This document shows positions 11,658-43,720 of a stretch of 64,000 nucleotides of DNA, piece after piece. Both the position numbers and the translations under genes were made by a program. The stretch's first letter is position 1; every line of letters starts with the position of its first letter. Under the pieces are notes generated by a model that had not been told where the DNA came from, did not search any database, and was given only the letters and a program-made list of their open reading frames with translations. The DNA lies in NCBI GenBank assembly GCA_951406725.2, contig OX597826.1, positions 38,812,001 through 38,876,000 on the forward strand, written 5' to 3'. Source of the stretch: Octopus vulgaris (Eukaryota).

Positions 11658-14437
11658 AATGATAATAGTTAAATAAATAATCAAATAGAGTTAAACAATA
11701 TTTATTTAAGAAATAAATAAAATAATAATTTTTCTTATAGAAAAAACTCCATTAAATAAATTAGAAACTTAAAACATTAGGATTATTTCCTACAACACAT
11801 TTATTATGTTAAATATTTATTTTTAAGGTAAAAAAATAGATAGAAATATGTATTTATCTTTGAGGGTATAATTTGGCTTTAAAAACATAATAAACTCCCG
11901 AATATCTTTAACTCAGTTATACTCCAATATTTAATTACCAAATTATTTAACAAAATAATCACTATTCATATTTTTAGATTTAAGTTCACATCTAATAATT
12001 ATAAAATATTTAAAAACAAGTATCTAAATTATAATCAACAAATATAGTAATTAAAAATCTAAAATTTTCCCTATCAATAAATATATAGACATGTAAAGAA
12101 AAATCAATAAATTAATTAGCCCATTATTACTTACATATATATTATAAATATCAATAGAATATATTTATGAAATACATTTAAAAATTTAAAGATTAAAAAT
12201 CAAATTAAAAACGTATAACCGATCTTAAAAGAACCGTATAACTATTTTACGATCTATAATACCACAGTGACTAAGTAATATTTTACATTTTACGTACAGT
12301 TATAATCTAATAATTAAATATACATATCTAAAATATCATCAACTAAATAACTATAGATTCAAATTAACAATCAGTAGTTATATAGAATACAATACAATAA
12401 AACCTCTTAAAATATCTTAAATTTCTTAAATAGAAGAAGGTTTACTTAACTCTCAAAAACCGTGTCATTAACTAAAATTTCAAAGCGGAAAACGTCTTTG
12501 AAGCGTTTATAAGGAAACTCGTGGAATTACGTAATTAACAGAAATAGAATAAACAGATGGAAAAATTATTTTAACAATGAAAACTACGAATAAATATTAT
12601 CAATGGAAAAGACGGTTATATTTTAGCTTTAATAGATAAAGAGAACAAAGTCACTAATAGTGAATATAATCACTATATACTATAATATCTTTCACTATAA
12701 ACCTAAAATTTATAATAAATTATACTCAAACTCTATAAATTAAATAATTTATACAACTGCCATTTACTGTATATTCTCTAAAAATCTTATACAAATTAAT
12801 TTATTTTATATATATAAAAAAAGGTTACGTTGGAGTCAAATCTTTATTTAAATAAAATAACTTTTAGACACATTCAATATTAACTCAGCAGTAATTCAAA
12901 CATTATCTATATTATGACCACTAATTAATAAACTAAATTAAATTAAAAACTATAATGTAATAAAATTCATTAATATAATATTAATTAATTAAATAAACAT
13001 CTAAATAAAACTACTTCGAAATATATAATAAATACATTTTGATTAATTTTAAAAAATTATTACAAACTATAACCAAAACTGTCGTATATAATAAATATAT
13101 ATTATATATCAAATTAATACTCAAAACAAATGCTAAATAATAATAAATTAAGCTTATTATATAGGTAAAGTAATATATATTTAGGTCAAATAGTTCGTTC
13201 TTTAATTGAATAAATAAAGTACATTTTATCATTATAAATAAATAGTACATAAAGAAAAAAAATTATTATTCTACACATTAAAATTTATTAATTTAACGTT
13301 ACTAAAACTATCACCAAAAAGATATATATACTTAATACTGTTAATTTTAGTAGACATATAATAATCATAGTAATAACAATAATAATAACAAAACCAACCA
13401 CAAAAAAATTAAATAACTATCTTTTAATCTATATTCATTAAATACATTATATATTTAGAAATAAAATAGACACCTAAATATAATCTAACTATAAGTATTT
13501 AAAGAACCTTTACTAACTCTTATTGACTAATACTCAAACCACCTACAGAATTGCAAACACAACACTATTATCATTAATTAATATATTTATTTTATTTATT
13601 TATTTATTTAGTTATTTAATAATATTAAATTATGTAATATGCAATATAAATCACATACTAAATTTAGAATTAATTCTATTACAAAATATAACTACAAATT
13701 AGAAACAAAATAGGGTTTAAATATAGTTGCTATTTATCTAAAAATTTATTATATAAGTAAAGTAATTTGTGTCTACATTTAATTTTACGCTCGCCTAATG
13801 TATTCACTAATTTATTATGATTATTAAATAATATTTCATTAAATTCACTAGAACATAAATGATAACAATTGCTACCTATACTATATGATTTTGCCTTACA
13901 AATTATATCCCACTTTAAATTATACTTAATTCGTTGGGATTTTAGTCCCCATAAGTATTTGCTAAGCTCTGTAGAGTTCATAAGATTTTGATTTTTAAAT
14001 GAATGCGTATACTGTGCTATTCTTAATTCAATTTTAGAGGAAGTGGACCCTGTATAAATGGCGTTTAAGTTATTATTATTCCTATTATTCTCACTAATTA
14101 ATGTAACTATACATTTATATACAACATCGTTTAAATCACATTTATTATTAAATTTACACTTAGTTTTATCTCTACATGTACAATCTATGAGTGCTTTATC
14201 TTTATTATTATTAGTATGATTATAAAATTTCGTTTTATAAAAATTATTCAACTTAAAGCTAAAAGAAGAAATAATGTTACCTACATTATTAGTGGTAGAA
14301 TAACCAACTCCAAAATTATTACTGGAGAAAATTTTTTTAGATTTACGATTATCATGAATGAATTGTTCAATAATGTTTAAAATCTCATTTAATAATGTTA
14401 GTTTAAACTTGAGTCCCACAAGGAACAATTAACCAAA

Positions 14438-38507: not shown

Positions 38508-40059
38508 TGTACAGTGAAAAAGAGAGAAATAGACAAACAATATTATAGTACTATTTATTACTGGAAATATATCTGATGGTTGTGTGACATACATATACAG
38601 TAGTCTAAATACTTTGAGTACTTGTTGGGCAATATATATCCTAGCAGCCTGGGAGTGACAAACATCATTCTAGAAATGCCATAAGTAAGATTCCTCTGCA
38701 TTTTGGCTTTCTCATCTTATTTTTTGTTTTGTAATATGGGTGGGGTTGACATATAATTTGGTGAAAGAACTTTTGTTGTTCATTGTTGACCTTTAATAAA
38801 TTTGTCCACCGACATATTTATCCCTCCTCTAATTTACCTTCCAAACTTACAAGTCATCCACTATGTGGTTACTGAGCTTACTAGAAATAATGATAACCTC
38901 TCCCTCAAGTTACACATTAAAGAGAACACATTGGATGATGTGGCCTGGATTCAATGCATATAACTAAACAACAAGAAGGTCATAGCTAGAATGTCTTTCA
39001 TTAGGTTTGACATGGGCCCAAGCAACATCAACATCAAAAAAGGGCCTGTACATGGATGCTTGACTTGTTAGAAATAGTTGTCAAATCTCATTCAAATTAT
39101 TACTTTTACATCTGACTTCAATTCACTTGTAGTGATCCAGTTTCTTTGTGAAGGACCCATGGAAATCCTACATCCAAATAAAACAACAGGATAGTCACCT
39201 TTGATATGCCTTTGATTATAGGTTTGCTATGGTCAATCACTGTTTTCTATGAAGTCACAATTAAGTCTGTGGCTAAACAACCCTAACACATCAGCAGCCA
39301 ACATCTTTACACTTGATATTAATTCGCCATCTGCCACACAACATATACAGTCGTTGTCAGAATATATAATAGCTTAAGATTAGATATGTATGTAGGGGAA
39401 CATGGCTGTATGTGTGTGGACAGAAGTGTGTATGCAAGTGGATCTCTTGGAGCATATGTGACAGGTGGTGTGTGTGTGTGTGTGTATATGTATATGTCTC
39501 TGTTTTTATGTCTATATGTCCCTAAGTGTGTCGGCCTATGAAAAATGTGTGTGTATGTGTGTGAAGATATCTGTGTGATATCAGAACGTGAATTTGTGAG
39601 TATATATGTAGCTATGTTTGTGTATGTGTGGTTGTGTGTATTTTGTGTAAAAGTGTGGTTGCATGAGTACCAGTGTTCGGGTGCATGTATGGAGTGTATG
39701 TGGCATAGATATGTATGTGTGGTAGCAGATGCATATGCTAGGCTATATATTTTAGTGTGTATATGTCAAGTTTTATGCCAGTGTAACACTATATGTTAAT
39801 GGTTGTGTATATAATGTTATATGTTTATGTGTATATAAGGTTGTATGTGTATGTGAGGGTATATTGTATGTATGTAAGGGTGTTTATCTATTTACATGTG
39901 TGTATGTAAGGTTGTATGTCTATGTGTACGAGCATTTATAAATAAGGTCATTTGTCTGTTTTTGCGTGTGTGTATGATGTATAAGCCTGTGTAAGTTATG
40001 TATTCAAGACGTTGACAGACATTCTTTTGTCAGCAACACCACAAAGATCTTATTGTAGT

Positions 40060-40975
40060 GGAGAGATGGTAGTGGTGGTGGTAGGAGTAATGGTGGTGGT
40101 GATCATAAATGGGGTTTAATGGTTGTGATGGTGGTGGTTGAATGGTAGTGGTTATGGCTGGGATGGTGACTGATGGTGATTGATGGTAGTGGTGATCATA
40201 GTGATGGTTATTGATGGTGGTGGTGGTAATGATGGAGACTGAAGGCAGTGATTGTGGTAGTAGTGGTAATGACAATTGATGGTACTGCTGATTGTAGGGA
40301 TAGTGATTGATGGTGGTGGTGATGGTGATTGATGACTGTGGTGGTGGTAATGGTGATTGATAGCTGTGATAGTGGTGATTAATGGCTATAGTGGCAGTGA
40401 TTGTGATTGATGGTTGCAGTGGTGGTAGTGATTGATGGCTGTGGTGATAGTGATGGTAATTGATGGCTATGGTGGTGGTGATGGTAATTGATGGCTGTAG
40501 TGATGGTGATTGGTGGCTGTAGTGATGGTGATTGATGGCTGTGGTGGTGATGGTGATTGATGGCTGTAATGGTGGTGGTGATTGATGGCTGTGGTGATAG
40601 TGATGGTGATTGATACTATGTTGGTGGTGATGATGATTGATGGTTGTGGTGATGGTGATAGTGATTGATGGCTGTGGTGGTAGTGATTGTGATTGATGGC
40701 TGTGGTGGTAGTGATTGTGATTGATGGCTGTGGTGATGATGGTGATTGATGGCTGTGGTGATACTAATGGTGATTGATGGCTGTGGTGGTAGAAATTGAT
40801 GGTTGTGGTAGTAGTGATGGTGATTGATGGCAGTGGTGATACTGATAGTGATTGATGGCTGTGGTAATGGTAATTGATACCTGTAGTGGTAGTAATGGTG
40901 ATTGATGCTGTGCTGGTGGTGATGGGGATTGATGGCTGTAGTAATAGTGATGATGACTGATGTCTCTGATGATGA
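40060..40975. repeat. Degenerate minisatellite of about 21-33 bp units around GTGATTGATGGCTGTGGTG
   Basis: The motif GATTGATGG recurs dozens of times in a TGA/TGG background. Confidence 0.9.
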
Positions 40976-41247
40976 TTCGATAGAAGGATGATCAAAAACT
41001 ACTTTTACAATAAATATATTGGTACAATTTTCCATATCCTTATATTTGTCTTTACCCTTCTAGCTGTCATCAGTCCATCCTCTTATTAACTATTCTAGCT
41101 GTCTATTTAGTCATCACTTCTCCTTTTCTCTTTCCTTTCTTTATGCAGTCAGTCTATTCATGCAGTTACTTGTCTCTTTCCCTTTAGCTATTAGTCTAAA
41201 AAAATATATATATAAACATCAAAATAAATATCAAATGGAAATAGTAG

Positions 41248-41594
41248 TTGTGATAACTGTGCCGGTGGCACGTAAAAAGCACCATCTGAATGTGGCCGAT
41301 GCCAGCGCCGCCTTGACTGGCTTCTGTGCCAGTGGCACGTAAAAAGCACCAACCGATCGTGGCTACTGCCAGCCTCGCCTGGCACCTGTGCCAGTGGCAC
41401 ATAAAAAGCACCCACTACACTCACGGAGTGGTTGGTGTTAGGAAGGTCATCCAGCTGTAGAAACACTTCCAGATCAGACTGGAGCTTGGTGCAGCTGCCT
41501 GGCTTCCCAGACCCCGGTCGAACCGTTCAACCCGTGCTAGCATGGAAAACTGACGTTAAATGATGATGATGATGATGATGATGATAATGATGAT
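41248..41594 (+). mobile_element. SINE/LINE 3' part with internal tandem repeats and (TGA)n tail (second copy 43975-44182)
   Basis: Three GTGCC.GTGGCAC.TAAAAAGCACC units, ending AACCC.TGCTAGCATGGAAAAC.GACGTTAAATGATGATG. Confidence 0.8.
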
Positions 41595-43720
41595 ATAAGC
41601 AAGAGGATTTCAAAATTTTCCTCCAGTCAAGAAGCCTTCAACACAGTAGCACCATACTATAATGAGGCCCTAGCTGCCAGCAGGTATAGGGACCACGTCT
41701 CCTACATGCCAGAACTCAACAGCTGCAGAAGGAAGTGCCGCAGAAATAGGATTTGGCTTGTGCCCCCACGCTCCCTTAACACAATAATACCCGTAGGTAA
41801 ACTTTTCCTTAAATTAATAGATAAGAATTTCACTAGCTCCCAGAGGTACGAACCCATATTCAGCAGGCACAACATTAGGTTCTTGTTTAGCTGCACCCCC
41901 AACATTAAGAGCATCCTAGTTAGCACCCCTAGGATACAAGAAGAAGCAGGTTGTTCATGCAGGATCTGAAGCAGTTGCTTGGTAGAAGGCCGCTGCAAAA
42001 CCAAAGGGGTTGTATATCAAGCCAAGGTTCTAACTAGACATGTGTTTAACACCAGCAGAAGCAATAACAGCAGTAGACCTGAGAACAGAGCCAGTAACAC
42101 AGCCACCATCGCCATCACCATCACCATGGATGGCAGCATTGCCAACAACAACAGCAGCAGCATCATTGCCATCACCTGCCTCACAAATAGCTTCCTTGAC
42201 ATCCACGATGCCAGACCTATTAGCCACTATAGTATATTTCTTTATTGCCCACAAGGGGCTAAACATAGAGGGGACAAACAAAGACAGACAAAGGGATTAA
42301 GTCAATTACATAGACCCCAGTGCATAACTGGTACTTTATTTGTCGACCCCGAAATGATGAAAGGCAAAGTCGACTTTGGCGGAATTTGAACTCAGAGCAT
42401 AAGTAGCAGAAGTAATAGGTCCAGTCCCATCAACAGAGCCAGGACAGTAGCACAGCCACCATCACCACTACTGTCACGATGGATGGCAGCATCGCTAACA
42501 ACAACGGCAACAGCATCGCAAACAGCAGCGATATCACCACCACCACCACCACCACCACCAGCATTACTAATAGCTTTTCTGACATCCACAATGCCAGGCC
42601 TATTGGCCACTATAGTTGTAGTAGCAGAGGTAATGGATCTGGTTCCATTTCTGGCTATAGTAGCAACAGCAGCAGAACCAGCAGTGGCAATAGAACAACT
42701 GTTGCTACCACCACATCCTCCACCATCGCCAGCACCAGCAACAACACCAGCAGCCCTGACTCCAACAACAGCAAGACTGGCGGCAGCACCAGCAGCAGCA
42801 GCAATAACAACAGCAACACCAGCACCAGCAGCAACAATGACTGCACCACAGGCAACATGAGCAGGATCAAGAATATGACCAGCACCAACACCATCCCTAG
42901 CAATGACAACACCAGCACCAACAGCAGCAGCAGCCCCAACTCCAGCAGTGAGCTGCAGCACCAGCGGCAATGGTTGCAGCAACAGCAGCAACAACAACGC
43001 CCATAGAAGTACGTGGGCTGCACTGGGAACTCTCTCAAACAGCGTATTTCCAATCATCTTTCCTCCTTCAGAATCCCAGAAAGGAAATATGTTACATCGT
43101 TGGCCAGCCATATCAATTATGAGATGAAGAGATTCCATACTTGATCGCATGGAAAATACTTGAGAATACAGGCCCCTACATCAACGGAACGAAATGGTGC
43201 AAGTTATGCATTGCCAAATGCATGAGGATCCTTAAAGACTCGCTCCTGCCAGGGTGAATCCTGAATTCCAAGACGGAGATTTTGGGATTATGCTTGTATT
43301 TTAGAAAATTCCTTTTGGCTTTTTGGAATCCACAGGGTGGCACCACAGCCAGAAACCAATAGCCAAGGCTGAAGGGAGGCAATCATTTACCTTTGTAGTG
43401 CTTTGGTAACTGTAAGATGGCAGCATGGCCAACGATCGATGGACAGTGGCAAAGTGAGATAATTACTTAGTATTTTACCCTTAAAAACGAGGCTTTTCCC
43501 CTCCATATTTTAAAGTGGTCTCAGGCCAGTAGTGTTTGGGATCTGAAGATACACCATTAGGCTAAACGCCTTCTGATCAAGAAACCCAGGGTAACCCCCT
43601 AGACGAGCCTACCTCACTATAATATATAGTTGTTGAGTGTCCCACCCATGAGGGATCGATGCTATATGTGTCAAAACAATTGTCATAATTAATAATAAAT
43701 CCTTGTATATTCCATCTTCT
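41595..43720 (+). mobile_element. Penelope-like element: RT C-terminus, linker, GIY-YIG endonuclease with a large low-complexity insert, and 3' region
   Basis: Motifs ISKRISKFSS..FNTVAPYYNEAL, RNRIWLVPP, SCTPNIKSI, CSCR..C.VEGRC..KGVVYQA, then about 1 kb later KYVGCTGNSLKQRISNHLSSF, TSLASHI, CKLC and LNSKTEI. Confidence 0.9.
42233..42400 (-). mobile_element. SINE family A fragment inside the PLE
   Basis: Closely matches 55-220 (CCCACAAGGGGCTAAACA...AAGGCAAAGTCGAC). Confidence 0.9.

Follow-up and report, generated by a model that had tools for sequence, protein, structure and literature searches.

How can a GIY-YIG endonuclease accommodate about 1 kb of low-complexity sequence between its GIY and YIG motifs? 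In these nucleases a single small active site brings together two tyrosines from adjacent strands, and the turn that connects the strands is short (GIY-X10-11-YIG), normally ∼13 residues. In the window, by which we mean the whole stretch of 64,000 nt of Octopus vulgaris DNA analysed here, a copy of a Penelope-like element (PLE) has its GIY and YIG tyrosines 995 nt apart. Our answer, which we regard as probable, is that the insert at the GIY-YIG turn is a family-wide, in-frame feature, and that its translation probably yielded a disordered loop on the protein surface, tolerated by active elements.

The element in the window

The features of the window copy are collected in Table 1. Family homology begins at 41593-41601 and the family 3′ match stops near 43625. 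The reverse transcriptase (RT) core is absent from the window copy; RT is found upstream in longer family copies.

Table 1. Features of the PLE copy in the window
Feature	Position	Strand	Notes
Hydra-clade Penelope-like element copy, dead, 5′-truncated	41593..43625	+	End of thumb, linker, GIY-YIG endonuclease, 3′ UTR
CxCx5C linker motif, cut by TGA 41967-41969	41952..41978	+	Translation; motif also in subfamily consensuses
GIY strand GVVYQAKV, beta-1 of the nuclease	42006..42029	+	GVVY at 42006-42017; predicted strand 49-59 in the L152 model
Expanded S/N/T-rich insert, GIY to YIG	42030..43006	+	∼275 family codons plus SINE; frameshifts at ∼42440, 42950 and 42999; TAG 43004-43006
Internal duplication, unit 1	42054..42233	+	Common to window, L007, L020 and L176
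SINE piece between the duplicated units, later insertion	42235..42402	.	Missing from L176 (165-nt gap); extreme depth
Internal duplication, unit 2	42405..42616	+	
YIG strand KYVGCT and endonuclease C-half (R..NH, CxxC, N, CxH)	43007..43362	+	Broken: frameshift, TGA 43255
Degenerate hammerhead ribozyme motif (CUGAnGA ... GAAA core), 3′ UTR	43537..43599	+	Read by eye in the window

Translation confirmed that GVVY opens in frame into an S/N/T-rich tract, as the initial annotation of this locus had it. That annotation had also described a 175-codon ORF running in frame, through one TAG, into KYVGCT. The positions are correct (the stop-free frame 42419-43003 has 195 codons, or 175 when counted from the ATG at 42479, and is followed by the TAG and by KYVGCT at 43007); the continuity of the frame is partly luck, since two frameshifts private to this copy cancel each other. 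The Q-rich end of the insert (ELQHQRQWLQQQ) lies between these two frameshifts, at ∼42950 and ∼42999, and is outside the family frame. Comparison with the open relative L176 reveals three private frameshifts in the window copy (these two and one at ∼42440) and a SINE of 165-168 nt, and 13 of the 16 indels between the two copies are multiples of three. The insert had been called ∼1 kb long and largely in frame: the length holds, and the two halves of the window copy proved not to be in one frame (995 mod 3 = 2, and still 2 after subtraction of a 168-nt SINE); the cause is an insertion of 5 nt, private to this copy, at ∼42440. The remaining lesions are the TGA at 41967, a frameshift near 43120-43135, the TGA at 43255 and a Lys replacing the conserved Glu after CxxC.

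A diverged duplication split by a SINE piece, also noticed earlier, was recovered as given in Table 1. Since L007, L020 and L176 share the duplication, it is older than the SINE of the window, whose loose ends are seen in contigs at 42235 and 42396-42402. Contigs of independent DNA runs span the passage from GVVY into the loop with 0-1 differences (X2 record 2, X3 record 11) as well as the loop-SINE junctions; the insert is therefore not an assembly artefact. The window copy is a dead descendant of a long-loop family.

Two other features of the window were observed, both on the minus strand. At 13730-14380 a second, AT-rich PLE fragment of Hydra type has an N-rich turn of 21 residues from Tyr to Tyr, which bears out the small N-rich expansion reported there at the matching position; in the flank tree this fragment falls far from the long-loop clade. 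At 40030-40998 a 322-codon open frame arises from a degenerate GAT/GGT tandem tract, a similar tract being present in L069. We rejected this tract as part of the PLE.

Assignment to the Hydra clade

The defining features of the Hydra clade are given in section 11 of PMC8557442 (Craig et al. 2021). As described there for Hydra-1_Obim and the clade, the octopus family lacks CCHH and has RWK, DKT, a CxCx5C linker, CxxC and CxH flanking the conserved E and N, an apparently C-terminal endonuclease, a predicted 3′ hammerhead and (TA)n targets. In the RT N-terminus, RWK was found in L014 and L022, and DKT (changed from DKG) in L022 and L018; this region is truncated from the window copy. The linker motif is intact in five of six subfamily consensuses, the sixth having an internal stop. 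Two alignments revealed no conserved Cys pair in the GIY-YIG turn, so CCHH is missing from the endonuclease, unlike in the Neptune rows of Fig. S7 of that paper. All seven long-loop consensuses retain YxG and R..NH, while CxHF is present in six, and CxxC..E and LNSR in four each; the last three motifs are also visible in single copies. Longer copies carry RT motifs directly upstream of the endonuclease, and all copies seen are non-intact.

A 3′ hammerhead ribozyme is predicted from a strict pattern in six family copies and from a core that recurs across 64 copies; an Rfam scan of three loci listed no hammerhead. At least four TA units follow the predicted ribozyme within 115 nt in 30 of 47 copies, a count made without a shuffled control. 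On these sequence features we place the family as a Hydra-clade PLE; the placement is by defining features, and the trees that we built are flank trees with unnamed outgroups. An identification of the motifs as Nematis-type was dropped in the light of the features listed in section 11. Six proteins had no match in Pfam, and word-index protein searches returned two, one and zero relatives. The octopus family with a 27-residue turn reads like Hydra-1_Obim in a by-eye comparison.

At four loci (L008, L016, L017 and L025) inverted Hydra partner pieces adjoin the main copy, resembling inverted PLE insertions reported in PMC8557442.

The insert as a family feature

The 2.8 Gb genome was searched with DNA of either flank, and 40 of 248 and 40 of 406 candidates were scored. 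The first 60 loci contained 20 distinct inserts (the window counted) of 267-1246 nt. With DNA and protein searches and further fetches, 79 distinct copies having both anchors were obtained among 200 loci, with an insert of at least 200 nt in 58 and a shorter one in 21; the queries bias this sample, and its size should not be read as a copy number. Searching with just the insert led back to endonuclease flanks in 26 of 30 fetched loci (a count that takes in the window and duplicate loci), the other four being one fragment, a CAG/CAA tract fetched twice and one minisatellite. Either of two findings was to speak against a lineage-wide loop according to the initial annotation, an insert unique to the window copy or an independent repeat; the insert is family-wide, and it is found with the endonuclease.

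Subfamilies form a series of Tyr-to-Tyr spacings, with 18, 27, 32-57, 92-137, ∼143-156, ∼197-220 and ∼285 codons. Fully open copies span 57-399 codons across the family; open loops include those of L176 (399 codons), L004 (200), L073 (199), L066 (188), L092 (155), L152 (151), L105 (144), L095 (137) and L075 (117). L176, which shares the duplication of the window copy, is a 501-aa open frame (L176:838-2340, minus strand). A loop of >250 aa, as originally proposed, is found in the duplication branch (290 in L007, ∼275 in the window copy) and in subfamily B2 (∼285), and is above the ∼200-220 codons typical of the window's subfamily. At the end of the L176 loop is a 21-nt repeat that reads NERRNRC and probably arose later by minisatellite expansion.

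Octopus long loops of ∼120-290 codons (399 in one copy) contrast with the turn of Hydra-1_Obim, which has 27 residues and is already S/N/T-rich, and with the 13-16 residues in the eight other Hydra rows of the PMC8557442 supplement. The portions of PMC8557442 available to us make no mention of long insertions at the GIY-YIG turn. Among the best 150 representatives of outside relatives, 146 had measurable spacings; 144 of these were 9-23 residues in a list whose ranking favours short turns. The other two, the Hydra-type proteins P0016 and P0139, have low-complexity expansions of 77 and 82 residues at the same turn; they are T/N/Q-rich or Q/E/R-rich, unlike the octopus loop, and are single records. 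P0112 is a protein of the 18-residue turn type.

In a flank tree with outside outgroups, the octopus subfamilies group together in a single clade (support 100), and the shortest turns fall near its base. This arrangement of sequences suggests stepwise loop growth; since the inner nodes along the length series are weak (support 39-83), the order of the expansions is not established. A further flank tree leaves out seven loci that are mis-anchored, deleted or segmentally duplicated.

Constraint on frame and selection on the nuclease

Frameshifts were counted in 36 copies from six subfamilies; singleton copies were left out, as was B2, because its three copies are neighbouring duplicates. The rate was 2.14 per kb in loops vs 2.65 per kb in flanks, and the positions differ from copy to copy, except for one column common to two of eight B copies. 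No frameshift is fixed in the loops of the six subfamilies, and all six loop consensuses are without stops, so the insert is present and open in the consensus. According to a rough estimate, in which the dead-copy rate is scaled by the divergence between subfamilies, unconstrained loops should have fixed some 9-17 frameshifts, vs zero observed. A loop free of both frameshifts and stops is found in at least one member of five of the six subfamilies; the sixth is that of the window, where L176 is open.

Between subfamilies, dN/dS indicates purifying selection both on the two flanks (0.06-0.26) and on the endonuclease C-half downstream of the loop (0.03-0.19 in four of five pairs, one pair being saturated), vs a dead-copy baseline of 0.47-0.53; subfamilies B and C differ in this half by 31 synonymous and five non-synonymous changes. 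Within the loop dN/dS between subfamilies is 0.44-0.89, no lower than the dead-copy baseline of 0.59, and there is therefore no coding signature at the amino-acid level. Stop depletion in the loops is likewise non-significant once codon-position composition is retained (P0 0.16-0.61 per subfamily). The constraint seen is therefore on frame and not on sequence. The training set of the phase model consisted of 11 open loops, and its result is therefore partly circular. The preservation of frame together with selection on the nuclease core supports the proposal, made from the window copy, of a lineage that tolerated a disordered loop. Since copies are ∼10% diverged from their subfamily consensus and no intact full-length copy was seen, activity of the elements is something that we infer.

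An antisense ORF as the cause of frame keeping is unsupported: one minus frame has 0-2 stops and is not consistently open.

Predicted structure

L152 has its whole endonuclease in one open frame with a spacing of 151 residues, part of its loop being a short out-of-phase stretch. An AlphaFold model made with 116 aligned sequences predicts a confident GIY-YIG core (pLDDT ∼91-97) and a low-confidence loop (pLDDT <50). Of 48,161 chains, the one that this model matches best is the catalytic domain of I-TevI (Z 9.3, rmsd 2.1 Å, 89/92 residues, model range 49-294), followed by T4 EndoII (Z 7.4) and the N-terminal domain of UvrC (Z 6.3). These matches came from the wide structural search; Foldseek gave no match for this model. 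A first, shallower model (28 sequences, pLDDT 50.8) had no match to a GIY-YIG fold. Thus, the core of a long-loop nuclease is predicted to have the three-stranded fold shared with I-TevI (PDB 1ln0), T4 endonuclease II and UvrC, with GIY and YIG on neighbouring strands, and the loop is predicted to be disordered; the turn in these three enzymes is short. The alignment behind the model is dominated by short-turn relatives, and the model therefore indicates compatibility, not function. On inspection we rejected an intein, since the insert is low-complexity, hypervariable and predicted to be unstructured.

Origin of the loop and alternative explanations

Most simply, a surface loop would have grown near-neutrally within the limits set by the frame. 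Loop codons are mainly AAC, AGC and ACC, and unit duplications are visible; from these the insert likely grew by triplet slippage and by short template-jump duplications during copying. Selection would purge only frameshifts and stops, leaving the loop to drift near neutrally, and the conserved nuclease halves would close around it into a normal GIY-YIG fold. In other PLEs two cysteines of the CCHH zinc finger sit in the GIY-YIG turn, and according to PMC8557442 the Hydra elements are without CCHH; in the absence of this finger the turn was probably free to grow.

It is unlikely, in our judgement, that the loop is positively useful, i.e. that selection favoured a low-complexity disordered region for its part in RNP assembly, in altered second-strand cleavage or tethering, or in evasion of host control; the premise that the loop is coding is the same as in the account above. 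No fewer than six subfamilies retain long loops, which tend to lengthen in nested branches, and subfamilies A and B still share short motifs such as TNSF.D/NVH; the loop sequences of C, D and D2, however, are very unlike those of A and B, and dN/dS in the loop comes close to the neutral baseline. Relative to the consensus, order-promoting residues show 248 gains vs 72 losses in dead copies, a weak hint that composition was maintained, but this test is biased by the majority-rule consensus. A further point against a useful loop is that the 18- and 27-residue subfamilies have similar terminal branch lengths and so spread over about the same period. That the octopus Hydra elements evolved a selected, stepwise-growing S/N/T disordered domain within the catalytic hairpin, one that serves RNP condensation, the geometry of cleavage or evasion of host restriction, we consider doubtful; if it were true, a retrotransposon nuclease would carry a functional disordered domain that exceeds the nuclease in length.

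We give still less credence to an inactivated nuclease, i.e. to long-loop elements mobilised in trans by short-loop relatives with the frame held by triplet composition alone. Short-turn relatives (18 and 27) do coexist in the genome, and triplet slippage, which yields 3n indels in non-coding DNA as well, favours such indels; yet 1-2 nt indels strike the loops of dead copies at 2.1 per kb and none has been fixed. Moreover, the C-half is under strong purifying selection between long-loop subfamilies (the 31 to 5 differences between B and C) and the consensuses keep their YxG, R..NH, CxxC..E and LNSR motifs to the extent given above. The purifying selection suggests that the long-loop nuclease would be active in DNA nicking.

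Least credible of all is a retained intron, removed by splicing before translation. Some PLEs do keep introns (PMC8557442), and in most copies the conserved Val codon that follows the GIY Tyr supplies a GT, with CAG right before KY in subfamily A; that GT is a Val codon present in short-turn families too, the GT..CAG pair leaves five residues from Tyr to Tyr, no GT/AG pair giving an in-frame turn of 9-30 residues occurs in more than two copies of any group except in three of five in D, T makes up 7-21% of the last 60 nt so that there is no pyrimidine tract, and an intron has no need to retain frame. The splicing alternative raised in the initial annotation is thus not supported, no splice-site pair being conserved. 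Four contig sets guessed to be RNA contain short family pieces only, and none of the 15 joints listed out of 98 has GT..AG ends, a result that speaks neither for nor against splicing.

Novelty and implications

The Hydra clade and the GIY-YIG fold are already known; the giant loop at the level of a family in a PLE endonuclease appears to be new. No PLE endonuclease with insertions this large came up in the literature, subscription journals and Repbase/Dfam aside (the latter may hold the family), and the accessible parts of PMC1564403, PMC11975286 and bioRxiv 10.64898/2026.07.22.740005 hold no GIY-YIG spacing data. The widest printed spacing that we found for an active GIY-YIG enzyme is that of the ANKLE1/LEM-3 domain, 33 residues from Y453 to Y486 (PMC10287932, as far as its accessible text goes); this is a host enzyme, and its spacing is 4 to 9 times shorter than the octopus loops.

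It seems that the elements spread while carrying 120-290 residues at the turn, more than the nuclease domain itself contains. If so, the GIY-YIG turn would be a very permissive insertion site, useful for building GIY-YIG fusion nucleases. The series of subfamilies (18, 27, ∼145, 200, 290) would be a natural record of a low-complexity region arising in a protein core with frame alone constrained. For annotation it serves as a warning that profile searches can miss or split long-loop endonucleases.

Other insertions and expansions

Low-complexity expansions were also observed outside the turn. In the Hydra-type proteins P0015, P0029 and P0103 they lie in the linker just before CxCx5C, a second permissive site.

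Other elements recur in the loops. The SINE piece of the window is inserted elsewhere in the loops of L014, L017, L124 and L127. A recurring element of ∼110-200 nt, found in the loops of L072, L113, L155 and L188 and in L194, also occurs beside a pure CAG/CAA tract; it is possibly a small mobile element targeting trinucleotide repeats. A SINE-like element ending in CAA repeats was seen repeatedly within loops (L028, L030, L088, L118, L132, L151 and L198), which suggests that the loop is a landing site for it.
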